A stretch of DNA of 64,000 nucleotides, from assembly GCA_002070955.1 (NCBI GenBank), contig MWEK01000012.1, positions 35,514-99,513 of the forward strand, in the 5' to 3' direction. The DNA is from Planctomycetes bacterium ADurb.Bin069. Lineage in GTDB: Bacteria; Planctomycetota; UBA8108; UBA8890; UBA8898. The notes under the pieces were generated by a model that was not told the origin of the DNA, searched no databases, and worked only from the letters and a program-made list of their open reading frames with translations. Positions 324 through 58,167 of the stretch are shown here, one piece after another (positions within the stretch are counted from its first letter, which is position 1; every line of letters starts with the position of its first letter). Both the position numbers and the translations under genes were made by a program.

Positions 324-496
324 GGCGGTATTGTACGCCATCGGGGGAGGCATCCGCGAGCAGCTCCCGCGCGGGCCGCGCGCGGACTGGGCGACCGCGC
401 GCACCGGCGTCGCCCGCGGCCTTGCCATTCGCCGCGGCGCTGCGTATCTTGGAAGGCGTGTCCGCGGTTCGCGCTTCCCTGCAAACGAGGTGACCC

Positions 497-2398: not shown

Positions 2399-2477
2399 CC
2401 TCGAAAGCGCGCTGAATCCGCCGCTCCCGGAGCCTTTGGAGCCTGTTTTTCCCCTGCGAGAGGAAAGGAGACCGTCC

Positions 2478-7004
<4,527 letters not shown>

Positions 7005-7012
7005 TCAGCGGT

Positions 7013-7453
7013 TCAACGGGAGCCGTGGCCGGCCGGAGCGTGGAGTCCGGCGGCGGGCTCGGGCTCGCCGAGCAGCTTCCTGACCTCGACACGGATCTGC
7101 TCGGGGCGAACGGGCTTGTCGAGCACCTTGTCGGCCTTGATCCACGACCGCGCCTCGGGCGACCGGGCGCCGAAGGAAACGCCCGTCGTGGCCGTCACCG
7201 CCGTGAGCATGATCACCGGCGTCTCGGGATAGAGCTTCTTCAGGTGGTGGCAGAGGACGAAACCGGAGTCCTTCTCCTCCATCATGAGGTCGAGGATCGC
7301 CAGGTCGGGCCGCACCGTGAGGAGGGTCTCCTCGGCCTCGACTTGGCCGCCGGCGCTGACGATGTCGTAGCCCCGCCCCTGCAGGGCGAGAGTGAGCTGG
7401 TCGACGATGTCCGGATCGTCGTCCACAATCAGGATCTTCTTTTTTGCGTTCAT
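7013..7453 (-). CDS. Stand-alone response regulator receiver (CheY-like, no output domain)
   Basis: MNAKKKILIVDDDPDIV...LAILDLMM...PVIMLTA...K shows receiver-domain Asp and Lys motifs. The gene sits between hydA and the nfn-like gene on the same strand. Confidence 0.85.
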   Translation of the reverse strand: MNAKKKILIVDDDPDIVDQLTLALQGRGYDIVSAGGQVEAEETLLTVRPDLAILDLMMEEKDSGFVLCHHLKKLYPETPVIMLTAVTATTGVSFGARSPEARSWIKADKVLDKPVRPEQIRVEVRKLLGEPEPAAGLHAPAGHGSR

Positions 7454-7505
7454 CGTTGTCCTTGCGGGTTCCTGTGCGTTGCGGGTTCACGCGCCGAAGC
7501 GTCCA

Positions 7506-9227
7506 TCATAGCAACACATCGCGCTGGGCGTAATGCGTGTGCAGCAAGCGGTGGCTCGTCTCGCTGAGCGGCTTGCCGAGAAACTCCTCGTAGAGCCGGA
7601 GGACCCACTTGTTGCGGTGGCTCACCCGGAGCTGCTCCTCCCGGTCGATCTTGTACAGCGCCTGCATGCGGGACTTGACCGCCTCCAGGTCGGCCTTGAG
7701 CGGCTGGCCGCCGCCGTTGATGCACCCGCCGGGACAGGTCATGACCTCGATGAAGTGCAGGTCTTTCCGGCCCGCCTTGATCTGATCGAGGAGCTTGCGC
7801 GCCTGCCCGAGGCCGCTCACGACGGCGGCGCCCAACTCCAGCCCGTCGATGTTGAGGCGCACCTCCTTGCAGCCGTGCATGCCGCGGATCGGCTGGATCT
7901 TGAGATCGGGGTACTCCTTGCCCGTGATCAGGAAGTAGGCCGAGCGCACCGCCGCCTCCATGACGCCGCCGCTGGCGCCGAAGATCTTGCCCGCGCTGGA
8001 GCGCTCCCCGAAGGGCGTGTCGGCTCCCTCGGGCTCCATGGCCGCCAGGTCGATGCCGAACATGCGCAGGAGTTGGCCGAGCTCGCGGGTGGTCAGGACG
8101 TAGTCGACGTCGGGGATGTGGCCGGGGGCCATCTCGGGCCGCGAGCACTCGAATTTCTTGGCCGTGCAGGGCATGATGGAAACGCTGACGATCTTGGCCG
8201 GATCGACGGCCTCGCGCTGGGCGAAGAAGCTCTTGATGACCGCGCCCATCATCTGCTGCGGGCTCTTACAGGTGGAGATGTTGGGGATGAACTCGGGGTA
8301 GAACTCCTCGACGAACTTGATCCAGCCCGGCGAGCAGCTCGTCAACATGGGCAGCACGCCGCCCGTCTTGATGCGGTGGACGAGCTCGGAGCCCTCCTCC
8401 ATGATGGTCAGGTCCGCCGCGAAGGAGGTGTCGAAGACGCGGTCGAAGCCCACGCGCCTCAAGGCGGCGACCATTTTGCCGTCCAGATCGGTGCCGGGCT
8501 TGACGCCGAACTCCTCGGCGAGGCTCACCGACACGGCGGGGGCGTGCTGGGCGACGACCAGCTTGTCGGGGTCCGACAGGGCCGCGACGACGTCGGCCAG
8601 CGAACTCGTTTCGCTGAGGGCGCCCGTCGGGCAGACGAGGACGCATTGGCCGCAGTTGACGCAGCTTGAGAGGTTGAGCCCCGTGTCGAAGGCGGTGCCG
8701 ATGAAGGCGCGCGAGCCGCGGTTGACGAAGTCGATGGCGGAGATGCCCTGGACCTCCTCGCAGACGCGCACGCAGCGCCCGCAGAGGATGCATTTGTCCG
8801 GGTCGCGCAGAATCGAGGGGCTGGAGACGTCCAGCTCCCTGGTCGTCTTCTTCCCGCGGTACAGGCGCTGGCGGATTCCCATCTCCATGGACAGAGTCTG
8901 GAGATCGCACTTGCCGTTGCGCGCGCAGTACAGGCAGTCATCGGGGTGGTTGCTCAAGAGCAATTCCACGTTGGTCCGGCGCGCCTCGAGCACCTTGGGC
9001 GAACGGGTCTTGATCTTCATGCCGGGGGCGACGGGAAAGGAGCAGGCCGGCGTCAACGTCGGGGAGCCCTCGACCTCCACCACGCAGAGGCGGCAGGCGC
9101 CGCTGGGCGGCAGCCCCTCCATGTGGCAGAGCGTGGGCACCTGGATGCCCTCGCGCTTGAGCGCCGTCAGAATCGTCTCGCCCTCGTTGGCCTGGATCGT
9201 ACGACCGTCAGCTTCGAACGTGATCAT
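7506..9227 (-). CDS. hydA: [FeFe]-hydrogenase catalytic subunit HydA (multimeric/bifurcating type: N-terminal 2Fe-2S, 4Fe-4S ferredoxin domains and H-cluster domain)
   Basis: H-cluster motifs TSCSPGWIKFVE, MPCTAKKFE and MTCPGGCINGGGQP. N-terminal CxxC plant-ferredoxin-like fold and CxxCxxCxxxCP 4Fe-4S motifs. ATG at 9227. Confidence 0.9.
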   Translation of the reverse strand: MITFEADGRTIQANEGETILTALKREGIQVPTLCHMEGLPPSGACRLCVVEVEGSPTLTPACSFPVAPGMKIKTRSPKVLEARRTNVELLLSNHPDDCLYCARNGKCDLQTLSMEMGIRQRLYRGKKTTRELDVSSPSILRDPDKCILCGRCVRVCEEVQGISAIDFVNRGSRAFIGTAFDTGLNLSSCVNCGQCVLVCPTGALSETSSLADVVAALSDPDKLVVAQHAPAVSVSLAEEFGVKPGTDLDGKMVAALRRVGFDRVFDTSFAADLTIMEEGSELVHRIKTGGVLPMLTSCSPGWIKFVEEFYPEFIPNISTCKSPQQMMGAVIKSFFAQREAVDPAKIVSVSIMPCTAKKFECSRPEMAPGHIPDVDYVLTTRELGQLLRMFGIDLAAMEPEGADTPFGERSSAGKIFGASGGVMEAAVRSAYFLITGKEYPDLKIQPIRGMHGCKEVRLNIDGLELGAAVVSGLGQARKLLDQIKAGRKDLHFIEVMTCPGGCINGGGQPLKADLEAVKSRMQALYKIDREEQLRVSHRNKWVLRLYEEFLGKPLSETSHRLLHTHYAQRDVLL

Positions 9228-9256
9228 GTTGCACCTTTATCCTTTTTCTTTCGGCC

Positions 9257-12200
9257 TCACTCCGGTTGCGTGAAATCGAGATCGCACCGCAGGCACCGGC
9301 GCGCCTCGCACACGGCGGCCTCCTCGCTCACGGCCAGCTCGACCTCGGCGAAGCACTTCGCGCGTTTGGCCACGGGCAGCTCCGGCGCGCGCACGCGCCC
9401 CGCGGGCTCGGCATCCTCGTCCGGCAGTTGGACCGGCTCGATGTACACCGTGGGCAGCGTCACCTTCGGCAGGGTCCTCATGAGCTTGCCCTTGAGGAAC
9501 CGGTCGATCATGAGGGCCGCGTTCTTGCCCGCCGCGATGGCCGCGACGACGGTGCTCGGGCCGGTGACCATGTCGCCGCCGGCGAACACGCCCGGCCGGT
9601 CCGTGGCGTAGGACTCGGGGTTGACCGCGACGGTGTTCCACTTCGTCTTTCTGAGGCCGTCGAGCCCCTCGGTTTCGGCCTCCTCGCTGATGGCCGCAAT
9701 GAGGGTGTCGAGCTCCACCTCGAACTCGGAGCCCGGCACCGGCACGGGCTTGGCGCGGCCGGAGGCATCGCGCTCGCCGAGGCGGTTGCGGATGAGCCGC
9801 AGGCCGGTCAGGGCGCCGTTCTTGGAGAGCACCGCCACCGGCGCCACCAATTCCTCGATTTTGATGCCTTCCTTGAGGGCCCCCTCGATTTCCTCGGCGT
9901 AGGCCGGCATCTCCTGGCGCGTGCGGCGGTAGAAGACCGTGACGCTCGTAACGCCCTTCTCCCTGAAGGCCACGCGGGCGGCATCGATGGCGGAGTTGCC
10001 GCCGCCGACAATGCCGACCCGCCCCTTGGCGGTCTCCTTGCCGTGGAGGTTGTAGTCCTTGAGGAAGGTCACGCCGGGCAGGACGCCCTTGACATCCTCG
10101 CCGGGCACTCCGAGCTTCTTGCTCCGGTGCGCGCCGAGGGCCAGGTACACCGCCTTGTAGCCCTCCTTGAACAGGCCGTCGACCGTCACGTCGCGGCCCA
10201 GCGCCGCGCCGTACTTGATCTCGACGTTCTGGTTGAGAAGGGCCTCGATCTCCTTGTTGAGCGTTTGGCGGGGCAGGCGGTAGGCGGGAATGGCCGCGAC
10301 CAGCATCCCCCCCGCCTTGGCCTCGCGCTCGAAGACCGTGACCTTGTTTCCCAGGAGCGACAGATAGTGGGCGGCCGCGAGGCCCGAGGGGCCGGCGCCG
10401 ACCACCGCGACCTTGGGCGCGTTCTCGGCGGCCGGAATGGCGACCGGCGCCCCGACGGAAGGATCGACGCGGTCGACGACGAAACGCTTCAGCGTGCGAA
10501 TCGCGATGGGCTCGCCGCCGGTTTGACCCGCGCGGCAGGTGCGCTCGCAGGGGTGGTGGCAGACGCGGGCGCAGGCCGACGGGAAGGGGTTCGCGGCCCG
10601 GATGGCGCGGTAGGCGTCCTGGTACTCGCCGCGGGAAATATGGGCGACGTAACGCCAGACCTCGGTGCCCACCGGGCAGCCGTTCTGGCACGGCGCGCCG
10701 ACCAGCTCCTTGCAAGCGCCGGCCGGGCAGCTCCGGTCGAAGATATGCGCCTCGTACTCGTCGCGGAACCACTTCAGCGTGCTGAGCACCGGGTTGGGCG
10801 CGGTCTGTCCCAGGCCGCAGAGGCTCGTCGTCTTGATCGTCTCGCCGAGCTGCTGCAGGTACATGATGCCCTGGACGCGCAGGAGGGCGTCGATGTCCTC
10901 CTCCCGCTTACGGGGGCGGCACACGGCTTGGAGGATTTCCAGCATGCGCTTCGTGCCCTCGCGGCACGGGATGCACTTGCCGCAGCTCTCGCTCTGGATG
11001 AACTCCATGAAGAACTTGGCGAAGTCGACCATGCAGGTGCCCTCGTCGACGACGACCATGCCGCCCGAACCCATGATCGTGCCGAACTCCTTGAGGGCCT
11101 CGTAGTCCGTCGGGAGGTCCAGATGCGCTTCGGGGACGCAGCCGCCCGAGGGGCCGCCGATCTGAACGGCCTTGCACTTGCGGTTGTTGGGGATCCCGCC
11201 GCCCGCCTCGAAGACGACGGTGCGCAGCGTCGTGCCCATGGGCACCTCGACCAGGCCGGTGCGCCTGACCATGCCCGAGAGCGCGAACACCTTCGTGCCC
11301 TTGCTGCCCTTGGTTCCCAGGGCCGAGTACCACTCGGCGCCGTGGTGCAGGATCAGCGGGAGGTTCGCCAGGGTCTCGACGTTGTTGATGACGGTGGGCT
11401 TGCCGAAGAGGCCCTTGACCGCCGGGAAGGGCGGGCGGGGCCGAGGCATGCCGCGGCGCCCCTCGATGGAATGGATCAGCGCGGTTTCCTCGCCGCAGAC
11501 GAAGGCGCCGGCGCCCATCTTGAGCACGATGTCCAGATCGTTGCCGGTGTCGAAGATGTTCCGGCCCAGGAGGCCGCAGGCGCGGGCCTGGGCGATGGCG
11601 TCGGTCAAGCGCTTGATCGCGAGGGGATACTCGGCGCGGATGTAAATGTACGCCTTGGTGGCGCCGAAGGCGTAGGCGGCGATGATCATGCCCTCCAGGA
11701 GGCGATGGGGATCGCTCTCGCCGACGGCCCGGTCCATGAAGGCGCCGGGGTCGCCCTCGTCCGCGTTGCAGATGAGGTATTTTTGATCACCGACCGCCTG
11801 GCGCGCGAACTTCCACTTCCTCCCCGTGGGGAAGCCGCCGCCGCCGCGGCCGCGCAGCCCGCTGGCCTCGACGCAGTTGCACACGTCCTCCGGCGTCATT
11901 GTCTTGAGGGCCTTGGTCGCGGCCGAGTAGCCGCCCCAGGCGATGTACTCATCGATGCTGCTCGGATCGATGATGCCGCTGGCCGCCAAGACGACGCGGT
12001 ACTGGGGCCGCAGGAACGAGTGGGCCTCGAGGGCCGGGACGCCGTCCCAAGCTTTGGCGCCGACGTTCCGGAACTGTCCGATGACGCCGTTGCCCGCGGG
12101 AATCACGCCTTTGCCGAGGACCGCGGCCAGGAGATCGGGAACCTTCTCGGCGGTGACTCCGCCGAAGCTCACGCGCGTCCGGCCGGGCAGGTGGATATCG

Positions 12201-12532
12201 ACGATGGGTTCCTCGGAGCACAGGCCGATGCAGCCGGTCTCGAGGACCTGCGCGTCGCTTTTGTGCGCCGCCACCCATTCCTTGATCGCCGCGAGGGTCT
12301 TGCCCGCGCCGGCGCCCAGGCCGCAAGTGCCCGCGCCCACGAAGACGACGGGCGTCGCGAGCGTTTCGCGGCGCAGCGCGGCGAGCAGTTCCGCGATCTT
12401 CCCGGGGTCTCCGGTGCGCGCGGCCGCGAAAGAGCCCGCCTTGAGCCAGCCCAGGAGATCCGGCGACGGCGCCGGCGGCTCGGCCCAGCATTTACCCGGA
12501 GACACCGGACGAACGAAATCACCTAGGCGCAT
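9257..12532 (-). CDS. hydB: HydB/NuoF-like flavoprotein subunit (NuoE-like Trx-like 2Fe-2S N-terminus, FMN/NADH site, 4Fe-4S clusters) fused to a C-terminal GltD-like (glutamate synthase small chain/NfnB-like) FAD/NAD(P)H domain
   Basis: ATG at 12532 with GAAAAGGAGG 7 nt upstream. NuoF-like motifs are GLRGRGGGGFPTGRKW and ESCGKCIPCREGT. The residues beyond about 590 (CQNGCPVG...[14 protein letters not shown]...VFAGGDMVTGPSTV) are GltD-like. Confidence 0.85.
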   Translation of the reverse strand: MRLGDFVRPVSPGKCWAEPPAPSPDLLGWLKAGSFAAARTGDPGKIAELLAALRRETLATPVVFVGAGTCGLGAGAGKTLAAIKEWVAAHKSDAQVLETGCIGLCSEEPIVDIHLPGRTRVSFGGVTAEKVPDLLAAVLGKGVIPAGNGVIGQFRNVGAKAWDGVPALEAHSFLRPQYRVVLAASGIIDPSSIDEYIAWGGYSAATKALKTMTPEDVCNCVEASGLRGRGGGGFPTGRKWKFARQAVGDQKYLICNADEGDPGAFMDRAVGESDPHRLLEGMIIAAYAFGATKAYIYIRAEYPLAIKRLTDAIAQARACGLLGRNIFDTGNDLDIVLKMGAGAFVCGEETALIHSIEGRRGMPRPRPPFPAVKGLFGKPTVINNVETLANLPLILHHGAEWYSALGTKGSKGTKVFALSGMVRRTGLVEVPMGTTLRTVVFEAGGGIPNNRKCKAVQIGGPSGGCVPEAHLDLPTDYEALKEFGTIMGSGGMVVVDEGTCMVDFAKFFMEFIQSESCGKCIPCREGTKRMLEILQAVCRPRKREEDIDALLRVQGIMYLQQLGETIKTTSLCGLGQTAPNPVLSTLKWFRDEYEAHIFDRSCPAGACKELVGAPCQNGCPVGTEVWRYVAHISRGEYQDAYRAIRAANPFPSACARVCHHPCERTCRAGQTGGEPIAIRTLKRFVVDRVDPSVGAPVAIPAAENAPKVAVVGAGPSGLAAAHYLSLLGNKVTVFEREAKAGGMLVAAIPAYRLPRQTLNKEIEALLNQNVEIKYGAALGRDVTVDGLFKEGYKAVYLALGAHRSKKLGVPGEDVKGVLPGVTFLKDYNLHGKETAKGRVGIVGGGNSAIDAARVAFREKGVTSVTVFYRRTRQEMPAYAEEIEGALKEGIKIEELVAPVAVLSKNGALTGLRLIRNRLGERDASGRAKPVPVPGSEFEVELDTLIAAISEEAETEGLDGLRKTKWNTVAVNPESYATDRPGVFAGGDMVTGPSTVVAAIAAGKNAALMIDRFLKGKLMRTLPKVTLPTVYIEPVQLPDEDAEPAGRVRAPELPVAKRAKCFAEVELAVSEEAAVCEARRCLRCDLDFTQPE

Positions 12533-13001
12533 TGACGGCCTCCTTTTCACGGCAGCTCTGAATGATCTGCGCCAGCTTGCGCGGCGACACTTTGGCGTAG
12601 AATTCCCCGTTGACGTTGACGACGGGCGCCAAACCGCAGGCGCCCATGCAGGCGACGACCTCCAGGCTGAACATCCGGTCGCGGGAGGTCTGGCCGGGGC
12701 TGAGCTTGAGCTGCTTCATGACGGTCTGCAGCACCTTGTCCGAGCCCTTGACGTGGCAGGCCGTGCCGCGACACACCATGAAGTGGTACTTGCCCTTGGG
12801 CTGGAAGCGGAACTGGTTGTAGAAGGTCGCCACGCCGTAGATCTTGCTGGCTGGGAGCTTGAGGTGCTTGCTGATTTGGATGACCGCCTCCCGCGACAGG
12901 TATCCCTCGGCTTCCTGCACCTCCTGCAGGATCGGGATAAGCGCGTCGCGCGAGGCGCCCTGATGCTGCGTCAGGATCCTTTCAACGGTTTGGGCGCTCA
13001 T
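12519..13001 (-). CDS. hydC: HydC/NuoE-like thioredoxin-fold [2Fe-2S] subunit of multimeric [FeFe]-hydrogenase
   Basis: The translation ...MVCRGTACHVKGSDKVL...VACMGACGLAPVVNVNG matches the NuoE/HoxE 2Fe-2S family. The ATG at 13001 overlaps the rex stop codon (ATGA). Confidence 0.85.
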   Translation of the reverse strand: MSAQTVERILTQHQGASRDALIPILQEVQEAEGYLSREAVIQISKHLKLPASKIYGVATFYNQFRFQPKGKYHFMVCRGTACHVKGSDKVLQTVMKQLKLSPGQTSRDRMFSLEVVACMGACGLAPVVNVNGEFYAKVSPRKLAQIIQSCREKEAVNAPR

Positions 13002-13666
13002 GCGTGTTTCCTTTCCATCTGCTGTCCCCGGCGCGCGAAGAACGCGACCTTCTCGAGGGACATGGCCAGATCAATATCCTCGACGAAGACGTGGTCTGGA
13101 ACGCGCAGCGTCACCGGGGCGAAATTGAGAATGCCGCGCACGCCGGCATCGACGAGCAGGTCGGCCGTCGCCTGGGCGGCGGCCGCGGGGACCGTCAGCA
13201 TGGCGACCTCGATGCGGGCGGCGGCGGCCACCGTGCGGAGATCGGCGACGGGATAGCAGCGGCAGCCGAAGGTGACGCAGTTGGTTTTCGCAGAATCGAT
13301 GTCGAAGGTCGCGACGACGGCCAGGCGGGACCGGCGGCCGGCGAAGAAGCTCAGAATGGCGCGCCCGAGGTTGCCCAGGCCGACGAGCGCCACGTTCTGG
13401 GTGCCGGGGCGGTAGAGGAATTCCTCGATTCCGGCGAGGAGCTCCCGCCGGTCGTAGCCGCGGTTGGGGCTGCCCGCGCAGCCGACGAGCATGAGATCGC
13501 GGCGCACCTGCGCCGAGGAGACGCCGCACATGGCGCCGAGCTCATAAGAGTATATGAACCGTTTTTGGTGTTCGTGGGCGCCCGAGAGGCGTTTTCGATA
13601 GAGAATCAGACGGCTGACCGTCCGCTCCGAGATTGTGCGCTCGGATCCGCCCTGTTGCTTCTTCAT
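12998..13666 (-). CDS. rex: Redox-sensing transcriptional repressor Rex (NADH/NAD+ sensor)
   Basis: N-terminal winged helix (RLILYRKRL...) and Rossmann fold (VALVGLGNLGRAIL) typical of Rex. First gene of the hydCBA operon. Confidence 0.85.
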   Translation of the reverse strand: MKKQQGGSERTISERTVSRLILYRKRLSGAHEHQKRFIYSYELGAMCGVSSAQVRRDLMLVGCAGSPNRGYDRRELLAGIEEFLYRPGTQNVALVGLGNLGRAILSFFAGRRSRLAVVATFDIDSAKTNCVTFGCRCYPVADLRTVAAAARIEVAMLTVPAAAAQATADLLVDAGVRGILNFAPVTLRVPDHVFVEDIDLAMSLEKVAFFARRGQQMERKHA

Positions 13667-13691: not shown

Positions 13692-13709
13692 CTGTGAAAT
13701 ATCTCACGT
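13692..13709. promoter_or_regulatory. Putative degenerate Rex operator (cTGTGAA-ATAT-cTCACgt)
   Basis: Compared with the canonical Rex box TTGTGAAnnnnTTCACAA, the first half-site is perfect and the second has two mismatches. It lies 26 nt upstream of the minus-strand rex start. Confidence 0.4.
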
Positions 13710-13808: not shown

Positions 13809-13826
13809 CTGTGAATGGTTTCACAA
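13809..13826. promoter_or_regulatory. Putative Rex operator (cTGTGAA-tggt-TTCACAA), near-perfect inverted repeat
   Basis: 17/18 match to TTGTGAAnnnnTTCACAA. It is 44 nt upstream of the plus-strand rex paralog start and within the shared divergent promoter region. Confidence 0.6.
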
Positions 13827-13869: not shown

Positions 13870-14514
13870 ATGCCGCCTTCTGAACGGACAATCGGCCGCC
13901 TGAGCCTGTACCGCCGCCTGCTCAAACAGGCCGCCGCCGCGGGACACGAGCACGTGTACTCCCACGAGCTCGGCGCGCGGGCCGGAGCGACGGCTTGCCA
14001 GGTCAGGCGCGACATCATGGGGCTTGGCTGCGCTGGAAGCCCGAGCCGGGGGTACAAGGTGAAGACGCTGCTCGACCGGATCGAATTTTACCTCGATGCG
14101 CCCGTGGTCGAGCGCGTCGCGCTGGTCGGCGTCGGGAATCTGGGCCGGGCGATTCTGTCGTTTTTTCAGCGCCGCCGGCCGAAGCTCGAGATCACGGCGG
14201 CGTTCGACAGCGACCCGTGGAAGACAAACCGCGTCGTCCAGGGCGTGCGCTGCCACGCCATGGCCGAATTGGAGCCGGTGGTGAGGGAGCAGGGCATCAG
14301 GCTCGCCGTTCTGACCGTGCCCGCCGCGGCGGCGCAGGAGGCGGCCGACGCCCTGGTGGCGGCGGGGATCACGGGGATCCTGAGCTTCGCGCCGGCGCCC
14401 CTGCGCGTGCCGCTCGGCGTTTTCGTCGAGGACATGGATTTGGCGATGTCCCTGGAGAAAGTGGCGTACTTTGCCCGGCGGCACGTTCGGGCGCCGCGGC
14501 GGGGCGGGAAGTGA
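13870..14514 (+). CDS. rex: Second Rex-family redox-sensing repressor (paralog), divergent from the first
   Basis: MPPSERTIGRLSLYRRLL...VALVGVGNLGRAILSF... is about 55-60% identical by eye to the rex at 12998..13666. ATG at 13870. Confidence 0.8.
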   Translation: MPPSERTIGRLSLYRRLLKQAAAAGHEHVYSHELGARAGATACQVRRDIMGLGCAGSPSRGYKVKTLLDRIEFYLDAPVVERVALVGVGNLGRAILSFFQRRRPKLEITAAFDSDPWKTNRVVQGVRCHAMAELEPVVREQGIRLAVLTVPAAAAQEAADALVAAGITGILSFAPAPLRVPLGVFVEDMDLAMSLEKVAYFARRHVRAPRRGGK

Positions 14515-14524
14515 GGGCCCTCCG

Positions 14525-16531
14525 ATGAAATGCGCGGGCGACATCCAGCTCGTACGGACGATCAAGGAGCGCTGCCGCATCTGCTTCACCTGCGTGCGGG
14601 AATGCCCCGCCAAGGCCATCAGGATCGTCGAAGGCCAGGCCGAGGTGGTGCCCGAGCGCTGCATCGGGTGCGGCAACTGCATGCGGGTGTGCAGCCAGAA
14701 CGCCAAGCAGGTGCTCGACGGGAAGCCGGACACGGCCGCGCTGCTAGCCTCGGGCGCGCCCGTCGCGGCCCTGGTCGCCCCGAGTTTTCCGGCGGAGTTC
14801 GTCGAGTGCGGGTGGCGCGAGTTCGTGGGCATGTTGCGCGCGCTGGGCTTCGCCTTCGTCAACGAGGTCGCTTTCGGCGCCGATATCGTCGCCGAACGCT
14901 ACCGGCGCCTGCTCGCCGAGCATGACGGGAAGCGCTACATTGCCACGACCTGTCCGGCGATCATCTCCTTCGTGGAGCAGTACCACCCCGAGCTGGTCAA
15001 GTTCCTGGCGCCGGTGGTCTCGCCCATGGTGGCGGAGGCGCGGGTGCTGCGCAGCATCCACGGCGACGGGGTTAAGCAGGTCTTCATCGGCCCCTGCATC
15101 GCCAAGAAGGGCGAGGCGGCCAGCGAGAACGTTCCGGACGAGGTCGATGCCGCCCTGACCTTTCAGGAGCTCCGGCAGATGTTCGCCGAGGCCGGCATCA
15201 CGCCGGAAAACGTGCGGCCGAGCGATTTCGACCCGCCGCGCGCCGGTCTCGGGGCGCTCTTCCCCTTGAGCCGCGGCTTGCTCCAGACCGCGGGGCTCGA
15301 CGAGGACCTGCTCACGGGCCACGTGGTCGTGACGGGCGGACGGCAGAACTTCGTCCAGGCCCTGCGCGAGTTCGAGAAGGGCGACCTCAACACGCGGCTC
15401 CTGGAGATTCTGGCCTGCGAAGGCTGCGTGATGGGGCCCGGCGTCACGAACGATACGCCGCTTCTGACCCGGCGGGCCAACGTCAGCCGCTACGTGCGCG
15501 AATGCCACGCGACGCTGGACCTGGCGCGCTTCCGGGCGGACCTGGACCGATGCGAGAAAATCGATTTCACGCGGGGGTTCAAGGTCTACGATCAGCGCAT
15601 GCCGGTGCCGCCCGAGGAGGAGATCAGGAATGTGCTGGAGCGCATGGGCAAGGAGGAGCCCGCCGACGAGCTGAACTGCGGCGCCTGCGGCTACGACACC
15701 TGCCGCGAGCACGCCGTGGCGATCATCGAGGGGCTCGCCGAGCACGAGATGTGCCTGCCGCATTCCATCGAGCGGCTGCACAAGACGGTGAAAGACCTGG
15801 CCGCTTCGAATCGACAGCTCGCCTCGACCCAGGAGGCGCTGCTCAACTCCGAGCGCCTCGCGAGCATGGGGCAGCTCGCCGCCGGCATCGCCCACGAGGT
15901 CAACAACCCCCTGGGCGTGGTGCTGATGTTCGCGCATCTGCTCCGCGAGCAGCACGCCAAGAACCCGGCGCTTGCCCAAGACCTGGCCCTGATCGTCGAG
16001 CAGACCGATCGCTGCAAGAAGATCGTGGCGGGCCTGCTCAATTTCGCGCGCCAGACCAAGGTTCTCAGGCAGCCCTTCGATGTGCGCGAGCTCGTCAACC
16101 GCACGCTTCAGACCATGCCGCCCCCCGCGGGCGTCAAGGTGCGCGTCGAGCATGGAATCGAAGACCCGGTCGCCGAGATCGACCGCGATCAGATCGCGCA
16201 GGTCCTCGTCAATCTGATCACGAACGGGTACCAGGCCATGGCGGGCGGGGGCGTGTTGAGCGTGCGCACCCGCGGCGATGCCGACACGGCGGTCATCGAG
16301 GTGGCCGACACCGGCGTGGGCATCCCCAAGGAGAACCTGACGAAGATCTTCGAGCCGTTCTTCACGACCAAGCAGATCGGCACGGGCACGGGCCTGGGGC
16401 TCGCGGTGAGCTACGGGATCACCAAGATGCATAACGGCGGCATCGCCGTGGAATCCAACATCGACCCCGCCCGGGGGCCGACCGGAAGCACGTTCACCGT
16501 CACGCTGCCGCGCCGGGGGGCCGACGCTTAG
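14525..16531 (+). CDS. Putative sensory [FeFe]-hydrogenase (HydS-like, group C type) fused to a histidine kinase (HisKA + HATPase_c)
   Basis: N-terminal 2x 4Fe-4S ([23 protein letters not shown]). H-cluster-like motifs [22 protein letters not shown] and [12 protein letters not shown] Cys-rich linker CGACGYDTC is followed by the H-box (IAHEVNNPL) and N/G1/G2 boxes (LITNGYQA...DTGVGI...[11 protein letters not shown]). Confidence 0.85.
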
Positions 16532-16548
16532 CGCGGAAGGAGAGATTC

Positions 16549-17697
16549 GTGGGAGCAACGACACTGAAAATCCTGGTGGTCGATGACGAGCCTGGGATGC
16601 AGATCGGCGTCGAGCGCGCCCTCAGGGACTACGCCGTGCATGTCGCCGAGGTGAACGAGGATGTGCGCTTCGAGGTCGAAACCGCCGGGAGCGGCGAGGA
16701 TGCGCTGGCGCGCATCGAGAACGTCCCGGCGCCGCCGCACCTCCTGCTGCTGGATCACATGCTGCCCGGCATGACCGGCCTGGATGTGCTCGACCGCCTG
16801 GCGGGCAGGGATCTGGAGCTCCTCACCATCATGATCACGGCGTATGCGTCGCTGGAGACCGCCGTGACGGCGACGAAGCGCGGGGCCTACGATTTTCTGG
16901 CCAAGCCCTTCACGCCGGCCGAGCTCAAGAACGTGATCCAGAAGGCGGCGGCCCGGCTGCTCCTGGCGCGCCAGGCGCGCGCGCTGGCCCGCGAGCGGCA
17001 CCAGGTGCGCTTCCAGTTCATATCGGTGCTGGCGCACGAGCTCAAGGCGCCCCTGGCCGCCGTCCAGGGCTACCTGGCCATCATGCGCGACCGCGCCGCC
17101 GGCGATACGATCGACGATTACGACGAGGCGATCGGGCGCTGCCTGGCCCGGGTGGAGGGGATGCGCAAGCTGATCCTCGATCTGCTCGATCTCACGAAGA
17201 TCGAATCCGGCCAGCGCGCGCGGGAGATCGCCCCGCTGGATCTCTGCGACGCCGTGCGCCACGCGCTGGACACCTACCGGCCCGAGGCGGATGCGCGGCG
17301 GATCACGCTGGAGTTCGCGCCCGCGGGGCCGGTGCCGATGGAAGCCGACCGGAGCGAGATCGAGGTGATTCTCAACAACCTGCTCTCCAACGCCGTCAAG
17401 TACAACCGCGACGGCGGGAGCGTGACCGTGGAGTGCGGGGCCGAGGACGGCACCGTGACGATCGGCGTCGCCGACACGGGCATCGGCATGGGGCCTGAGG
17501 ATGTCAAGAAGCTGTTCGGCGATTTCGTGCGCATCAAGAACGAAAAGACCCGCAAGATCTCCGGCAGCGGCCTGGGCCTGGCGATTCTCAAGAAACTGGC
17601 GCTCTTGAACGGGGGCGACGTGAAGGTGGAGAGCACTCCTGATGTCGGGACGCGCTTCACCGTGACGCTCAACCAGCGTCAGACAAGCAAGGAATAG
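16549..17697 (+). CDS. Hybrid sensor: N-terminal receiver domain fused to histidine kinase (REC-HisKA-HATPase_c)
   Basis: GTG start at 16549 with GGAAGGAGAG upstream. REC motif (LKILVVDDEP...LLLLDHMLPG), H-box (LAHELKAPL) and ATPase boxes (LLSNAVKYN...DTGIGM...GSGLGLAI). Confidence 0.85.
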   Translation: MGATTLKILVVDDEPGMQIGVERALRDYAVHVAEVNEDVRFEVETAGSGEDALARIENVPAPPHLLLLDHMLPGMTGLDVLDRLAGRDLELLTIMITAYASLETAVTATKRGAYDFLAKPFTPAELKNVIQKAAARLLLARQARALARERHQVRFQFISVLAHELKAPLAAVQGYLAIMRDRAAGDTIDDYDEAIGRCLARVEGMRKLILDLLDLTKIESGQRAREIAPLDLCDAVRHALDTYRPEADARRITLEFAPAGPVPMEADRSEIEVILNNLLSNAVKYNRDGGSVTVECGAEDGTVTIGVADTGIGMGPEDVKKLFGDFVRIKNEKTRKISGSGLGLAILKKLALLNGGDVKVESTPDVGTRFTVTLNQRQTSKE

Positions 17698-17737
17698 ACG
17701 CGCGCCCGGGCGCGCGAAGCGGAAGCGAGGTGCATCC

Positions 17738-19162
17738 ATGTGTGCGCTGCCGGCCATGCGCGTGAGCGCGGGCTGCATCGATTTCATCAACGAGGCGCGT
17801 TTCAACGCGCTGCTGGCGCCGAGCCGCCCCGACCCGGGCCGCGTGCGCGAAATCATCGACAAGAGTCTCGCGAAGGAGGCCCTGTCGCTGGAGGAGACGG
17901 CGGTCCTGCTGGGGGCGGAGGATCCCGGCCAGATCGAGGCGATCTTCCAGGCCGCGCGGACTCTCAAGGAGCGGGTCTACGGGAACCGCATCGTGCTCTT
18001 CGCGCCGCTTTACATCGGCAACCATTGCGTCAACGACTGCGCCTATTGCGGCTTCAAGCGCTCGAACAAGGAAGCCGTTCGGCGGACGCTGCGCGGCGGG
18101 GAGCTCGAGGCCCAGATCCGGGCGCTCCAGCGCGCCGGGCACAAGCGCCTGATTCTGGTCTTCGGCGAGCACCCCGCCTACGATGCGGAGTCCATCGCCG
18201 AGGCCGTGCGCACGGCCTATCGCATCAAGGAAGGCCGCGGCGAGATCCGGCGCGTCAACATCAACGCGGCGCCCCTGGATGTGGAGGGCTTCCGCGCCGT
18301 CAAGGCGGCCGGCATCGGGACGTACCAGATCTTCATGGAAACGTACCACCGCGCCACCTACGCCCGCCTCCACCCGGCCTACACGCGCAAGGGGGACTAC
18401 CTGTACCGCCTGGATGCGTTGAATCGGGCCCTCGAGGCCGGTTGCGACGATGTGGGCATCGGCGCCCTTTTCGGACTCTACGACTGGAAGTTCGAGGTGC
18501 TCGGGCTCGTCGCCCACGCGCTCCATCTCCAGGAGCGCTTCCGCGTGGGGCCCCACACGATCAGCTTCCCGCGCATCAAACCCGCCTCGGGCGTGTGCCT
18601 CGACGATTGCCACGACGTGAGCGACGAGGAGTTCGCCCGCGTCGTGGCGATTCTGCGCCTGGCGGTGCCCTATACGGGCCTCATCCTGACGGCGCGCGAG
18701 CCCGCGGCGCTCAGGCGCCGCCTCATGGCGTTCGGCGTGTCGCAGATCGACGCGGGCACGCGCCTTGAGATCGGCGGCTACACCGAAGCCGGCGATGCGC
18801 AGGTCATGGAGCGCGAGCAGTTCAGCCTGGGGGACGTGCGCTCGTTGGACGAGGTCATCTTCGAGCTGGTCGAGGACGGCTACGTGCCGAGCTTCTGCAC
18901 GGCGTGCTACCGGCTCGGCCGCACGGGGGAGCACTTCATGGAGTTCGCGATTCCCGGCTTCATCAAGCGCTTCTGCACCCCGAACGCGCTGACGACCTTC
19001 AAGGAATACCTGATCGACTACGCCTCGCCGCGCACGCGCGCGGCCGGCGAGCGCCGCATCGCGGCGGAGCTGGCCCAGTTGCCCGACGATCCGCAGAAAG
19101 CGGCGCTCATGCGCCGGCTGGAGGCGATCGAAACCGGCACGGCGCGGGATCTGTACTGCTGA
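17738..19162 (+). CDS. hydG: [FeFe]-hydrogenase maturase HydG (radical SAM tyrosine lyase)
   Basis: Radical SAM CNDCAYC motif. C-terminal auxiliary-cluster motif FCTACYRLGRTGEHFME is characteristic of HydG. ThiH-like overall. Confidence 0.9.
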   Translation: MCALPAMRVSAGCIDFINEARFNALLAPSRPDPGRVREIIDKSLAKEALSLEETAVLLGAEDPGQIEAIFQAARTLKERVYGNRIVLFAPLYIGNHCVNDCAYCGFKRSNKEAVRRTLRGGELEAQIRALQRAGHKRLILVFGEHPAYDAESIAEAVRTAYRIKEGRGEIRRVNINAAPLDVEGFRAVKAAGIGTYQIFMETYHRATYARLHPAYTRKGDYLYRLDALNRALEAGCDDVGIGALFGLYDWKFEVLGLVAHALHLQERFRVGPHTISFPRIKPASGVCLDDCHDVSDEEFARVVAILRLAVPYTGLILTAREPAALRRRLMAFGVSQIDAGTRLEIGGYTEAGDAQVMEREQFSLGDVRSLDEVIFELVEDGYVPSFCTACYRLGRTGEHFMEFAIPGFIKRFCTPNALTTFKEYLIDYASPRTRAAGERRIAAELAQLPDDPQKAALMRRLEAIETGTARDLYC

Positions 19163-19202: not shown

Positions 19203-21197
19203 CTATTCGATGGCGCGGATCGCGGCGTCCGCCGACCATTTGGCGCGGGGTATCTGCGCGATTTTTCGGAGGGCGGGCAGCGCCGGCGCGGCGGGCTTGC
19301 CGATGGCGCCCAGCGCCGCGGCGACCGAACGCAGCACATGGACCTGCTGGCCCTCCGCCGAGGCGGCGTCGATCAACGCCGGGACCGCCGGCGCGGCCTC
19401 CCGGCCGATCGCCGCGAGGGCGTTGGCCGCCATCATCCGAACGCCGGCGTCGGAGTCCTGGAGCGCGGCCGCCAGCATGTCCAGCGCCGCGACGCTCTCC
19501 TGCCCCCTGTCGCGCAGCGCCAAGGCCGCCAAGCCGCGGGTGATCGGATCGGGATCCGACAGGGCGCGGCCGATGTCGGCAATGCTCCCCGCGGGCCTGC
19601 GCGGTTCGGTCACCGCCGCGGCGGCCGCCCACGCCTCCGGGCCCGTCTTGGCGAGAATGATGCAGTCGACGCCGAGGTTGTAGCCCCCGGACGCCTCGCG
19701 CTTGCCGAGGCACACGAACGTCAGGGTGTGCCGGCCCTTCGCGAGGCTGGGCCAGCCGACCTGGTAGGCGAGGCCGACGTAGGTCTCGGGAGCGTATCCG
19801 TCGAACTGCGTCCGCTCGATCACGTCGGCGCCCGGCTCGTGCTCGAGCTGCGCCGCGCCGGGGGCCTTGCCGTCGAGAAGCACGGTGTAGATCCCGTAGT
19901 CGCCCGCCTGGGCGACTTCGGTGTACACCTCGTAGACGCCGTCCTCGGGCGCGTCGAAGGGGATTTCGAGCTTGGCGCCCGGGCCCTCGGCGGCGAAGAA
20001 GATCACATCCTTGGACCAGAAAAGCTCGGGGATGAGGGACGCCTCGCCGCCCGCGGCCTTGACCTCGGCGAGGGATTGCTCCACCTCGATTTGCGCGGCG
20101 TTGCCGTGGGGCAGCCGCGCGGAGCCGTAGGGCACGGGGGGAAGATCCCGCGCGATGCCTTCTTGGTACCAGAAGGCGACGCTCGCGATGCAATCGGTGC
20201 GCTCGCCGAAGCACGATTTGACTGAGCCGTCGGCGTTGTAAGTCCAGCCCCGGTGCTCCATCTCCGCCTTGAGCGCGGACGTGAAGGGAATGGGATCGGT
20301 GAGGTGCCAGCGGTAGGCCGTCATTCGCGCGCCGAGCCCGGTGCCCTCGGCCACCGTGACGCCGTACAGGGGTCCGTCGTTGACATGCAGGCCCCAGGCG
20401 TCGTTGAAGTAGTCCTCGCTGCCCGTGCCCACGATCTCGGGGCGCCGCCCGTCCACCCAGAAGAAGTCATCGCCTTCCCCGAACCAGCCGGCCTCGGCCT
20501 GGACGACGGACATCACGGTGCCCACGTAATGCCCCCGGCCTTTGACGTTCAGGAATTCGTACCTGGAGCCATCCGCCGGTGCGGGCAGCGCCTGGCGGTA
20601 CCACGCGTGGAAGTAGCGCGTGTCCCGCGGGAGCGACGGCACTTTCTGCCAGTCGACGTGGTAGTAGAGCATGGTCACGCGGCGGCGGCCCTCGTTGGTG
20701 ATGGTGATCTTGCACGACTTGTGGAACGGCATCGGCCAGTAGCAGTTGCGGGCGCGGCCCGCGGAGCTGTTCCGAACCATGAGGGACTCGACCTCGGCCT
20801 CGACGCCGTTGCCGACGGCGAAGAAATCGCCCACCGGCGCGTCGACGCTGGGGGTGGGGCTCCCGTCGTAGTACACGCGCAGGCGCAGGAGCCGCGGCCA
20901 GCCGTACTCGTTGTCCGCGATGGTCAGCCAGATGTGGGTGACGACGCCGGGGCCTGCCAGGTCGGCGAGGACCGTCGTCTCGCCGGGGATCGGGCGCGCG
21001 CTGTCGTCGTTCGAGTCCCAGTCGGGATTGTTCGACGAGGCGCGCATCGCCGTGAAGTCCTTCGGCCGGGTCAGGCCGTAAGGATCGGGGTAGGCGGGGG
21101 CCGCGCGGTCGCTGCAGCCGGACGCCGCGGCGATGAAGAGCGCGGCGGGGAACCACGAGAGCAGAAGCTGTGTTTTCATGGGTTCAGTATACCTCAT
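19203..21197 (-). CDS. Secreted lipoprotein: DUF2961 (GH172-like) domain fused to C-terminal HEAT/PBS-lyase-like repeats
   Basis: Possible lipobox (LFIAAASGC). DUF2961 blocks GPGVVTHIWLT...GTGSEDYFNDAWG. The C-terminal GLAALALRDRG...DSDAGVRMMAANALAAIG run is HEAT-like. The exact start (21197 or 21179) is uncertain. Confidence 0.7.
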   Translation of the reverse strand: MRYTEPMKTQLLLSWFPAALFIAAASGCSDRAAPAYPDPYGLTRPKDFTAMRASSNNPDWDSNDDSARPIPGETTVLADLAGPGVVTHIWLTIADNEYGWPRLLRLRVYYDGSPTPSVDAPVGDFFAVGNGVEAEVESLMVRNSSAGRARNCYWPMPFHKSCKITITNEGRRRVTMLYYHVDWQKVPSLPRDTRYFHAWYRQALPAPADGSRYEFLNVKGRGHYVGTVMSVVQAEAGWFGEGDDFFWVDGRRPEIVGTGSEDYFNDAWGLHVNDGPLYGVTVAEGTGLGARMTAYRWHLTDPIPFTSALKAEMEHRGWTYNADGSVKSCFGERTDCIASVAFWYQEGIARDLPPVPYGSARLPHGNAAQIEVEQSLAEVKAAGGEASLIPELFWSKDVIFFAAEGPGAKLEIPFDAPEDGVYEVYTEVAQAGDYGIYTVLLDGKAPGAAQLEHEPGADVIERTQFDGYAPETYVGLAYQVGWPSLAKGRHTLTFVCLGKREASGGYNLGVDCIILAKTGPEAWAAAAAVTEPRRPAGSIADIGRALSDPDPITRGLAALALRDRGQESVAALDMLAAALQDSDAGVRMMAANALAAIGREAAPAVPALIDAASAEGQQVHVLRSVAAALGAIGKPAAPALPALRKIAQIPRAKWSADAAIRAIE

Positions 21198-24086: not shown

Positions 24087-25334
24087 ATGAAACAAACACC
24101 CAAGGGGCTCCGGCTCCACATCGGTATTTTCGGCCGGCGCAACGTCGGCAAGTCCTCGCTCCTGAACGCGCTGACGCGGCAGACGGTTTCGATCGTGTCC
24201 GACGTCGCCGGAACCACCACCGATCCGGTGGAAAAGCCCATGGAGCTTCCGCCGATCGGCCCGGTTCAGTTCATCGACACGGCGGGCATCGACGACCCGA
24301 GCGCGGTGGGAGAGCAGAGGGTCGCCCGCACGCGCCAAGTGTTCGATCGGACCGATGTGGGCATCCTGGTGGCCGAGGCGGCCGTATGGGGGCCTTACGA
24401 GGACATGATCCTCGCCGAGCTGGCGCGGCGCCGCGTTCCCGCGGTGGTGGTGTTCAACAAGGCCGACCGCGGCGCGCCGTCCCCGGAGGCGTCCGGGGCG
24501 GCGGCCAAGGCCGGCGCGCGGACCGTCACGGCCATCGCCACGCGGGGCGAGGGAATCCTCGACCTCAGGAACGCCCTCATCGAGGCCGCGCCCGAGGAGT
24601 ACATCGACGCGCCCCCGCTCATCGCCGATCTGGTCGCCCCGGGGCAGTGTATCGTGCTCGTTGTGCCCATCGACAAGGAAGCCCCCAAAGGCCGCCTCAT
24701 CCTGCCGCAGGTGCAGACCATCCGGGAGATCCTCGATTCCGATGCGTACTGCCTGGTCGTCAAGGAGCGCGAGCTTGCCGACGCGCTCGGGCGCCTGGCG
24801 CGGCCTCCCAGTCTGGTCGTCACCGATTCGCAGGCGTTCGCCAAGGTCGCCGCCGACACGCCGGCGGAGATTCCCCTCACGTCCTTTTCGATCCTCTTCG
24901 CCCGGGCCAAAGGGGATCTGGGCGAGTTCGCGCGGGGCGCCATGTCCATCGATTCCCTGAAGCCCGGCGACGCCGTTCTCATCGCCGAATCCTGCGCCCA
25001 TCACCCGATCGGGGACGACATCGGCCGCGTGAAAATTCCCCGTTGGCTCACGCGCTACGTGGGAGGGGCGCTGCGCTTCACCACGGTCCAGGGGCACGGC
25101 CTGCCCGACGACCTGGCGCAGTACCGCCTCGTCGTCCACTGCGGCGCGTGCATGTGGAATCGCAGGGAGGTGCTCGCGCGCATTATCCGCTGCCGCGACG
25201 CGGGGGTGCCGATCACGAACTACGGGACGGCGATCGCCTATTCCCTCGGCATCTTCGAGCGCGCGCTCGGGCCGTTTCCCGCGGTGCTCGCCGAGTACCG
25301 CGCGGCGCGGGCCGCCGGCGGCAGCCGAGTTTGA
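24087..25334 (+). CDS. hydF: [FeFe]-hydrogenase maturation GTPase HydF
   Basis: P-loop GRRNVGKSSLLNAL. C-terminal cluster-binding motifs ESCAHHP and VVHCGACMWNR are typical of HydF. ATG at 24087 with GGAGGG upstream. Confidence 0.85.
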   Translation: MKQTPKGLRLHIGIFGRRNVGKSSLLNALTRQTVSIVSDVAGTTTDPVEKPMELPPIGPVQFIDTAGIDDPSAVGEQRVARTRQVFDRTDVGILVAEAAVWGPYEDMILAELARRRVPAVVVFNKADRGAPSPEASGAAAKAGARTVTAIATRGEGILDLRNALIEAAPEEYIDAPPLIADLVAPGQCIVLVVPIDKEAPKGRLILPQVQTIREILDSDAYCLVVKERELADALGRLARPPSLVVTDSQAFAKVAADTPAEIPLTSFSILFARAKGDLGEFARGAMSIDSLKPGDAVLIAESCAHHPIGDDIGRVKIPRWLTRYVGGALRFTTVQGHGLPDDLAQYRLVVHCGACMWNRREVLARIIRCRDAGVPITNYGTAIAYSLGIFERALGPFPAVLAEYRAARAAGGSRV

Positions 25335-45148: not shown

Positions 45149-45276
45149 GAGGGCTCCTTGCGGCTTTCAGTGTGCCACGGCGGAGCGGGGTTGTCCACCG
45201 GCCGGGAGGCGCATCCTTGCATCGGGCCCCGCGGAGGGGTACACTCAGGCCTCCGCTCTTACGGGGAAGGAGAAAA

Positions 45277-57433: not shown

Positions 57434-57446
57434 GGGGGGGGGGGGG
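57434..57446. repeat. Homopolymeric G tract (13 nt) in the intergenic region
   Basis: tct-GGGGGGGGGGGGG-caat; a second G6 run lies at about 57519. It is about 165 nt upstream of the small secreted-protein gene. Confidence 0.8.
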
Positions 57447-57612
57447 CAATACAACGTCATCTTCACGCGGCTTGTCGGCCCCGTATCACGTATAGCCGGC
57501 GTAGTCCAGTAGACGTCTTCTGGGGGGTGTTTCGGGTTCGAGACCCACCTTCTTCACAAGAAACTGCTATTCGTGGCTAAGTTTAAGCTCATAGCATCCA
57601 AGAAGAAGGTGG

Positions 57613-58083: not shown

Positions 58084-58167
58084 TTGACGCTACCACCAGG
58101 GCCCCGCTGCCGTACGGGTTTCGGGGCCCTGGAGACTTGTGCGCAGCAACAAACGGGAAAAAACGCC

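Follow-up and report, generated by a model that had tools for sequence, protein, structure and literature searches.

A putative hydrogen-responsive [FeFe]-hydrogenase-histidine kinase fusion beside Rex paralogs and a bifurcating hydrogenase operon in a planctomycete genome

A stretch of 64,000 nucleotides from Planctomycetes bacterium ADurb.Bin069 (contig MWEK01000012.1, positions 35,514 to 99,513; hereafter the window) was analysed around the gene at 14525..16531 on the plus strand. The gene encodes a protein of 668 amino acids (aa), referred to here as the HydS-kinase, in which a hydrogenase head is fused in frame to a histidine kinase. The reading favoured here, to which a probability of roughly 60% is given, is that the gene encodes an H2-responsive histidine kinase working in a two-kinase chain and acting together with Rex on a bifurcating hydrogenase. 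With such a fusion, an anaerobic planctomycete would probably be able to match its hydrogen metabolism to the H2 level. The gene belongs to a class which is already catalogued, widespread and known from genomes.

The G+C content of the window was approximately 69%, and many long spurious open reading frames (ORFs) were therefore present. Real genes were picked by frames with a G+C content at third codon positions (GC3) above 0.8, which on the plus strand gave Rex2, the 668-aa protein, a 382-aa protein and a 474-aa protein. The HydS-kinase gene begins at ATG 14525, 10 nt past the Rex2 stop, with the ribosome-binding site GAGGG 8 nt upstream. It was a single frame with a GC3 of 0.91 and its homologues aligned over the full length, which ruled out a frameshift or a separate ORF for the kinase. 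An earlier reading of this DNA, made from its letters without database searches (the sequence-only reading), had proposed a hydrogenase fused directly to a complete HisKA/HATPase_c transmitter, and the single ORF, the Pfam matches and the full-length homologues bear this out.

Pfam analysis of the 668-aa protein revealed an N-terminal ferredoxin-like domain with two [4Fe-4S] clusters (aa 12–60, 14558..14704; Fer4 families) followed by the H-domain (aa 79–305, 14759..15439; Fe_hyd_lg_C, 157 bits against a cut-off of 22). Conservation was assessed in 120 full-length database homologues of 60–100% identity with an identical domain set, and motifs were placed using a HMMER alignment to the T. maritima HydA chain 7p5h_A together with a four-way alignment. 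All eight Cys of the ferredoxin-like dicluster (17, 20, 23, 27, 46, 49, 52 and 56) were invariant among these homologues. The L1 motif reads ATTC143P, in which the relay Cys299 of CpI is replaced by Thr142 and the ligand Cys300 is kept; position 142 was Thr in 60 and Ser in 46 of the 120 homologues. The L2 motif reads G189-P-C191-I-A-K194-K-G-E197, with Met353 changed to Gly and Cys355, Lys358 and Glu361 kept. The L3 motif reads E-I-L296-A-C298-E-G-C301, with Met497 changed to Leu, both Cys kept and a one-residue deletion. The four H-cluster Cys (C143, C191, C298 and C301) were invariant, as were K194 (CpI K358), K195, E197 (the E361 equivalent), G189, L296 and the A85-P86-S87 (APS) loop. The ferredoxin-like motifs and the H-cluster domain with altered L1 and L2 had been noticed in the sequence-only reading; the Pfam matches agreed with them and the quoted motifs were present. 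The invariance of the H-cluster ligand set despite the degenerate motifs is an addition of the present analysis.

The three substituted positions, C299, M353 and M497, are those altered in sensory [FeFe]-hydrogenases (PMC10055695, PMC8163306). The T. maritima enzyme TmHydS carries Ala, Gly and Ser at these positions, and Gly at the M353 position is present in about half of the sensory sequences (PMC10055695). Sensory hydrogenases with such changes bind H2 and turn it over slowly (PMC8163306, PMC10055695), and TmHydS, with similar substitutions, takes up a functional [2Fe] subcluster (PMC10055695). The assignment to the sensory (group C) type made from the letters could thus be sustained, as the changes are of the TmHydS kind and all ligands are kept, and the sequence evidence supports the head as a sensory-type, group-C-like [FeFe]-hydrogenase with a full set of H-cluster ligands. 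A PAS domain was sought in the 668-aa protein; Pfam gave no match at E <= 0.01, and the AlphaFold2 (AF2) model showed helices only. Because the PAS criterion of modular type M2f fails, the head is called group-C-like rather than M2f. The AF2 model was built from a 51-sequence alignment with a mean pLDDT (predicted local distance difference test) of 79.7, and its N-terminal ~370–460 residues (369–459 aligned columns) superposed on solved [FeFe]-hydrogenases. Foldseek matched CbA5H, DdH, CpI and the HydA of HydABC with E down to 1e-22 and target-normalised TM (template modelling) scores up to 0.69. A different Fe-S fold, such as CODH/ACS or a Nar-like protein, could be ruled out by Pfam, by sequence matches to the PDB and by this fold search. 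The faults under which the sequence-only reading would have failed, namely missing Cys ligands, another Fe-S fold or a frameshifted kinase, were all rejected by Pfam, the homologues and the fold search.

Past the H-domain, a second type of cluster domain could be identified by a PF04060 FeS match at aa 383–412 (15671..15760; 39 bits). Its motif, C385-x2-C388-x4-C393-x16-C410, had all four Cys invariant in the 120 homologues, and this Cx2Cx4Cx16C motif defines the M2e/M2f HydS enzymes (PMC8163306). The stretch CGACGYDTC had previously been described as a Cys-rich linker; the Cys-rich stretch is present, but it is a conserved four-Cys cluster domain and more than a linker. Approximately 35 residues, predicted as all-helical by AF2, separate this domain from the transmitter (15866..16516), which consists of HisKA (aa 448–510) and HATPase_c (aa 553–664). 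The H box reads AHEVNNPL with the phospho-accepting H457, which was invariant in the 120 homologues. N563 and N567, D595-G597-G599 and G621-G625 were likewise invariant, the corresponding boxes reading D595xGxG, FEPFFTTK and GTGLGL. With the H, N, G1, F and G2 boxes all present, the transmitter is that of a class I (HisKA-type) sensor kinase. The best PDB match of the kinase core was ZraS (9jfj_A, E 2e-34), the best partial NCBIfam match of the transmitter was AtoS, and the nearest kinases were ZraS, KinB and AtoS. No NCBIfam model covering the HydS-kinase family as a whole was found.

The next gene (16549..17697, plus strand) encodes a 382-aa kinase with a receiver (REC) domain, hereafter the REC-kinase. 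It follows the HydS-kinase gene after 17 nt, one fewer than the 18 nt counted earlier. Pfam placed REC at aa 8–130 (D69) and HisKA at aa 156–221 (H163), followed by HATPase_c. The domains are those named in the sequence-only reading, which called the protein a hybrid kinase; however, a classical hybrid carries REC at the C-terminus, whereas here it lies N-terminal to the kinase core, as an input. D12, D13, D69, T97, K119 and H163 were invariant in 28 REC-kinase orthologues. A single-domain receiver is encoded at 7013..7453 on the minus strand (Pfam Response_reg), and its D55, T84 and K113 were invariant in 26 orthologues. No histidine phosphotransfer (HPt) domain was reported by Pfam among the cluster proteins scanned.

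A scan of a genome collection gave 38 related loci, numbered L001 onwards and drawn from metagenome-assembled genomes, which span Planctomycetota, Bacteroidota, Desulfobacterota, Myxococcota, Eisenbacteria and others. The closest, L001 of Planctomycetes bacterium UBA4800, was 90% identical and gene-for-gene syntenic with the window. The REC-kinase gene lies directly 3' of the fusion in 25 of the 26 loci with enough flank, hydA lies within 7 kb upstream of the fusion in 14 of 16, and a Rex gene occurs near it in 18 of 26. An orthologue of the single receiver adjoins the HydS-kinase gene in 25 of 33 loci, which upholds the earlier suggestion that the orphan receiver at 7013..7453 is part of the system. 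The cassette of hydCBA, single receiver, HydS-kinase, REC-kinase and Rex was syntenic across five phyla. The single receiver sits between the two kinases in Bacteroidota and just upstream of the fusion in Planctomycetota; in the window, where the cluster genes are divided between two divergent operons, the single receiver belongs to the hydCBA operon. This synteny suggests that the HydS-kinase, the REC-kinase and the single receiver, usually with Rex, make up a conserved signalling unit.

In two-component systems, a kinase of a given class is usually paired with a receiver of the matching class. The transmitter of the HydS-kinase is of the AtoS/ZraS/NtrB kind, and the REC of the REC-kinase scored best against NtrC-class receivers (NtrX, LuxO, NtrC and AtoC), a preference which was observed in the window and in Planctomycetota, Bacteroidales and Desulfobacteraceae orthologues. 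The kinase part of the REC-kinase best matched the PnpS/PhoR/WalK class, and the single receiver scored best, more weakly, against OmpR-class and DivK-like receivers. Because kinase and receiver classes match in this way, the order of phosphotransfer is proposed to run from the HydS-kinase to the REC of the REC-kinase, and from this second kinase to the single receiver; as a hypothesis, this order is the most economical.

Two Rex paralogs, 58% identical to each other, head the two divergent operons. Rex2 (13870..14514, plus strand; most likely start ATG 13870) scored 199 bits and Rex1 (12998..13666, minus strand; Pfam and NCBIfam) 187 bits against NF003995, the cut-off being 126, and the G(L/V)GNLG Rossmann motif is present in both, as GVGNLG in Rex2. 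The kinase pair therefore lies directly downstream of a Rex paralog, as had been read from the letters, and it is divergent from a bifurcating hydrogenase operon (rex-hydC-hydB-hydA on the minus strand by Pfam and NCBIfam), again in agreement with that reading.

Rex boxes were searched across the whole 64 kb as TGTGAA-N4-TTCACA with at most two mismatches. Two matches were obtained against 0.43 expected by chance, and at least two matches occurred in 8 of 100 shuffles. Both fall in the divergent intergenic region of ~200 bp flanked by the two Rex paralogs. The perfect box, TGTGAATGGTTTCACA at 13810..13825, overlaps the spacer and the -10 element of a sigma-70-like promoter facing rex2 (TTGACG at 13798–13803, 18 nt, CACAAT at 13822–13827). 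The second, imperfect site at 13693..13708, with two mismatches, sits just 3' of the -10 element of the promoter facing rex1 and hydC (TTGACA at 13738–13733, 17 nt, CATAAT at 13715–13710; 11/12 matches). Upstream of the first cluster gene, a Rex box with at most one mismatch could also be observed in L001, L002, L006 and L031. Taken as predicted operators, these boxes and promoters have the classical arrangement for repression relieved by NADH.

The minus-strand operon reads rex1, hydC, hydB, hydA, the single receiver and an NfnAB-like fusion gene. HydC (12519..13001) is the NuoE-like 2Fe-2S subunit (PF01257, 175 bits). HydA (7506..9227), the catalytic [FeFe]-hydrogenase subunit, scored 320 bits for Fe_hyd_lg_C and 833 bits for NF040763 (NADH-dependent [FeFe] hydrogenase, group A6; cut-off 765), and it matched T. 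kivui HydA1 with E 2e-185; it is likely the regulated enzyme. HydB (9257..12550, 1097 aa; Pfam and NCBIfam) consists of a NuoF-like core and a C-terminal GltD/NfnB-like module (Fer4_20 and Pyr_redox_2, FAD/NAD(P)), which replaces the usual C-terminal ferredoxin domain. Planctomycetota relatives align with HydB over its full length and Bacteroidota relatives with the NuoF-like core only. This form matches the sub-type I BfuB of Hydrogenedentota, which was also noted in Planctomycetota (PMC11406978), and the C-terminal module may add another flavin site or connect the enzyme to NADP(H). The plus-strand operon begins with rex2 and ends with hydG (17738..19162, 474 aa), the radical-SAM maturase of the H-cluster, which showed the Pfam domains Radical_SAM and BATS and scored 479 bits for TIGR03955 against a cut-off of 312; a terminator-like hairpin lies 3' of it at 19180–19197. 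The maturation GTPase gene hydF is located nearby in a separate transcription unit (24087..25334, plus strand; TIGR03918, 540 bits against a cut-off of 326). HydG in the same predicted operon and hydF nearby are consistent with a matured H-cluster in the sensor, and hydG and hydF are also linked in several related clusters.

A mechanism for the favoured H2-responsive kinase can be proposed as follows. The input would be a cytoplasmic, slow sensory-type [FeFe]-hydrogenase head with two N-terminal [4Fe-4S] clusters and an H-cluster. Binding and oxidation of H2 at the H-cluster would alter the redox state of the accessory clusters, including the C-terminal Cx2Cx4Cx16C [4Fe-4S] cluster, which is placed ~35–45 residues before His457 and joined to it via the helical segment. 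This redox change may switch autophosphorylation of the AtoS/ZraS-type transmitter either on or off. The phosphoryl group would most likely pass to the NtrC-class receiver (D69) of the REC-kinase, and the phosphorylated REC may gate the second, PhoR/WalK-type kinase, whose target would probably be the single-domain receiver (D55) of the hydCBA operon. The two Rex paralogs are predicted to repress both divergent promoters, and thus the units rex1-hydCBA-REC and rex2-hydS-kinase-REC-kinase-hydG, through operators at the -10 regions until NADH rises. At high NADH, the sensor, the maturase and the bifurcating hydrogenase would be made, and the H2 partial pressure would then tune hydrogen metabolism. 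A bolder version, which is considered doubtful, makes the four-gene cassette (HydS-kinase, REC-kinase, single receiver and Rex) a self-contained circuit without a DNA-binding regulator, in which the phosphorylated single receiver would contact Rex or HydABC. If it were true, a single repressor, or else the hydrogenase, would combine the signals of H2 partial pressure and of the NADH/NAD+ ratio. Rex or the hydrogenase would then be controlled in a new way, and the pathway from H2 to His-Asp signalling would be the first to be demonstrated for an [FeFe] enzyme.

Several points weigh against the H2-responsive two-kinase chain. A DNA-binding response regulator was found neither in the window near the cluster nor in the flanks of a Bacteroidales locus, and with Rex as the only DNA-binding regulator linked to it, the cassette does not account for an output step. 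Margins between receiver classes were small, for instance 65.2 against 64.3 bits in L006. AF2 confidence was low in the helical region around His457 (aa 428–465), so that the geometry of coupling rests on a weak region of the model. A search of the literature for biochemistry of kinase-fused HydS returned genomic mentions only. HydE was not found within the 64-kb window; in L004 and L031, the gene just 5' of hydG gave a weaker radical-SAM match, 29% identical to HydG, and is possibly hydE. Finally, canonical P1–P3 motifs were reported in one paper to be hard to locate among group C1 enzymes (PMC11406978), although the window protein clearly carries the motifs in modified form with every ligand.

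The last point also favours a different protein altogether, namely a Narf/Nar1-like Fe-S protein that lacks the H-cluster, holds only [4Fe-4S] clusters and senses O2, NO or Fe-S status, and the departure of L1–L3 from the canonical signatures points the same way. Such an identity is nevertheless judged to be very unlikely, as the four Cys, K194, E197 and A85-P86-S87 are invariant, the fold matches that of true hydrogenases, maturase genes are linked here and in several related clusters, and the functional [2Fe] subcluster of TmHydS is taken up in spite of similar substitutions. These invariant residues bear equally on the idea of a sensor of redox state rather than of H2, in which the accessory clusters would equilibrate with ferredoxin or the electron pool and the H-cluster would be incidental or serve as an electron vent. 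Three accessory clusters, one of them beside the kinase, an N-terminal dicluster of the kind which is the usual ferredoxin entry port of catalytic enzymes (PMC8163306), and co-regulation, as the predicted boxes suggest, with Rex, another redox sensor, all speak for this idea. A pure Fe-S sensor would need neither the residues binding the 2Fe subsite, invariant in the 120 homologues, nor hydG in its operon, and the C299/M353/M497 changes are those of sensory hydrogenases slowly turning over H2; redox sensing alone is thus regarded as unlikely.

It is also conceivable that the protein is an extra catalytic or accessory subunit of HydABC (BfuT), with the ATPase-like C-terminus serving a structural or chaperone role instead of that of a kinase. 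The gene adjoins hydA in most lineages, and the protein is called a T subunit in PMC11406978. In the window, however, the gene stands in a separate divergent operon with regulators, its kinase boxes (H, N, G1, F and G2) are invariant together with His457, and it is accompanied by two receiver proteins with an intact acceptor Asp, which makes a subunit role very improbable. Sensing of H2 by a two-kinase chain thus stays the preferred reading.

The sequence-only reading had overestimated the novelty of the fusion, as kinase-linked or kinase-fused group C enzymes near Rex and bifurcating hydrogenases are found in HydDB and in genome papers. HydDB defines [FeFe] group C1 as histidine kinase-linked (putative) (PMC5037454), and association with a histidine kinase is present here both as the in-frame fusion and as the second kinase that comes next. 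Kinase-fused group C enzymes were described in 2020 in groundwater Elusimicrobia, near Rex and a trimeric group A hydrogenase, and Méheust et al. tied the Elusimicrobia enzyme to those of Ignavibacterium album and Caldithrix abyssi (bioRxiv 10.1101/765248). A 2024 study of Hydrogenedentota reported HATPase_C in group C1 enzymes, and BfuT with a His-kinase domain, labelled C3, beside bfuABC in Hydrogenedentota, Caldithrix and Bacteroidota (PMC11406978). The C1 enzyme of Petrimonas mucosa (ING2E5A_0849) is encoded close to hnd genes (PMC7768429). The HydDB labels of the kinase-fused forms are in conflict, being C1 in two papers (PMC7768429, PMC11406978) and C3 in one (PMC11406978). The window protein has the same kind of architecture as the Elusimicrobia, BfuT and Petrimonas forms, with a trimeric group A hydrogenase and Rex nearby, and Bacteroidales orthologues with 50–54% identity to it show the cluster layout of the published kinase-fused loci. 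Those papers note the fusion only, leaving aside the REC-kinase and single-receiver partners, the invariance of ligands and the Rex operators. To this picture the present sequence analysis adds the company of the REC-kinase and the single receiver, a plausible order of transfer, predicted Rex operators on both promoters and hydG in the predicted operon of the sensor.

Comparison with the better-known HydS enzymes, namely T. maritima HydS (group C, M2f) and the HydS/HfsB of R. albus and Thermoanaerobacterium, revealed a shared pair of [4Fe-4S] clusters and a ligand-complete H-domain. The altered C299, M353 and M497 (with M353 changed to Gly as in TmHydS), the C-terminal Cx2Cx4Cx16C cluster and the location beside bifurcating HydABC and Rex are also shared with the TmHydS type. 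In contrast, the window protein lacks both a PAS domain and partners of the PP2C phosphatase or Ser/Thr-kinase type, and its cluster domain runs directly into HisKA-HATPase_c; its family carries Thr or Ser at 299 where TmHydS has Ala, and Leu at 497 where TmHydS has Ser. That bifurcating hydrogenases answer to both Rex and HydS has been a standing proposal since R. albus, with a mechanism 'yet to be elucidated'. The HoxBC-HoxJ-HoxA system of Ralstonia eutropha (HydDB [NiFe] group 2b) follows the same logic, with a crippled hydrogenase serving as H2 receptor and controlling a kinase, through which hydrogenase genes are regulated. However, its metal site and fold are unrelated, its sensor and kinase are separate proteins, with a PAS-like input to the kinase, and signalling ends at the DNA-binding NtrC-type HoxA, whereas the window has one sensor-kinase polypeptide and no linked DNA-binding regulator. 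RedCDEF of Myxococcus and DivJ/PleC-DivK of Caulobacter likewise combine a kinase with a REC-kinase and a single-domain receiver, without HPt. The likeness to these systems is limited to generic two-component domains, and the input in the window is a metalloenzyme head.

The HydS-kinase bears on how putative sensory [FeFe]-hydrogenases pass on the H2 signal. The direct fusion of head and kinase provides a one-protein read-out, autophosphorylation with or without H2, and two obvious substrates for phosphotransfer, so that [FeFe]-based H2 sensing could be tested in practice with this family. The family is abundant in uncultured anaerobes of at least five phyla. As it stands beside bifurcating hydrogenases, which set fermentation balance and interspecies H2 transfer, its logic is relevant to how H2 is cycled in sediments, digesters and guts. 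The window locus opens no new category and is a clean, fully syntenic example with clear predicted Rex operators.

Further observations were made on the hydrogenase operons. The L1 motif of HydA reads TSCSPGW instead of TSCCPxW; aligned without gaps to T. kivui HydA1 (8a6t_A), it has Ser at the position of the [4Fe-4S]H ligand Cys (CpI C300) and keeps the relay Cys. The variant was conserved in 9 related loci, including L001, L002, L005, L006, L007, L009, L022 and L031, and the L1 of Bacteroidota HydA reads [TS]SCCP. Ser is mentioned as common at this P1 position (PMC11406978). Right after the single receiver, 4572..6950 (minus strand) encodes a 792-aa NfnA-NfnB-like fusion with a DHODB Fe-S domain, Fer4_20 and Pyr_redox_2, which scored 1050 bits against NF009414, just below the cut-off of 1103 bits, and was conserved in L001 and L002. 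A perfect GC-rich palindrome, CGCGCGCCCGGGCGCGCG at 17698..17716, lies in the gap that separates the REC-kinase gene from hydG; it is terminator-like on the minus strand only and could be an attenuator or an intra-operon RNA-processing site.

The related loci also varied around the sensor. Bacteroidales locus L017 carries a PstSCAB-like ABC transporter (PBP_like_2, two permeases and an ATPase) and a Por_Secre_tail protein between hydA and the HydS-kinase gene (5396..9914), and similar gaps occur in L011, L013, L015, L029 and L030. Bacteroidales L010 (3876..5258, minus strand) and L029 (42..890, minus strand) possess another HydS-like gene, which lies 5' of hydC in the opposite orientation and whose products are 42–46% identical to the window head; this matches the two bfuT genes described before (PMC11406978). 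HydS-like heads without the kinase part follow rex-hydCBA in Phycisphaerae, Planctomycetaceae and Omnitrophota (L037, L033 and L034). At 5613..8569 of L037 (Phycisphaerae), a PAS-type HydS of 609 aa, which scored for PAS and was only 42% identical to the window head, precedes a SpoIIE/PP2C phosphatase; one phylum therefore pairs the same sensor head with alternative transmitters.

In the remainder of the window, the search for tRNAs and structured RNAs (Rfam) across the whole 64 kb returned none. The only other two-component pair, 25 kb from the cluster at 42423..45166 (minus strand), consists of an NtrC/AtoC-type sigma-54 regulator (42423..43952) and an AtoS/ZraS-type kinase (43742..45166), and cross-talk of this kinase with the HydS-kinase is conceivable given the likeness of the transmitters. 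The G+C content falls from ~0.70 to 0.57–0.61 across 54000..60000, where the genes encode surface-type proteins (HEAT/F5_F8_type_C, CarboxypepD_reg and FG-GAP/dockerin). DUF2961-family proteins are encoded on either side of the hydrogenase region at 2235..4577 (plus strand) and 19203..21197 (minus strand), one of them with HEAT repeats, and a 3-keto-disaccharide hydrolase/GDSL protein at 494..2398; these genes agree with the placement of the closest relatives in Planctomycetota.

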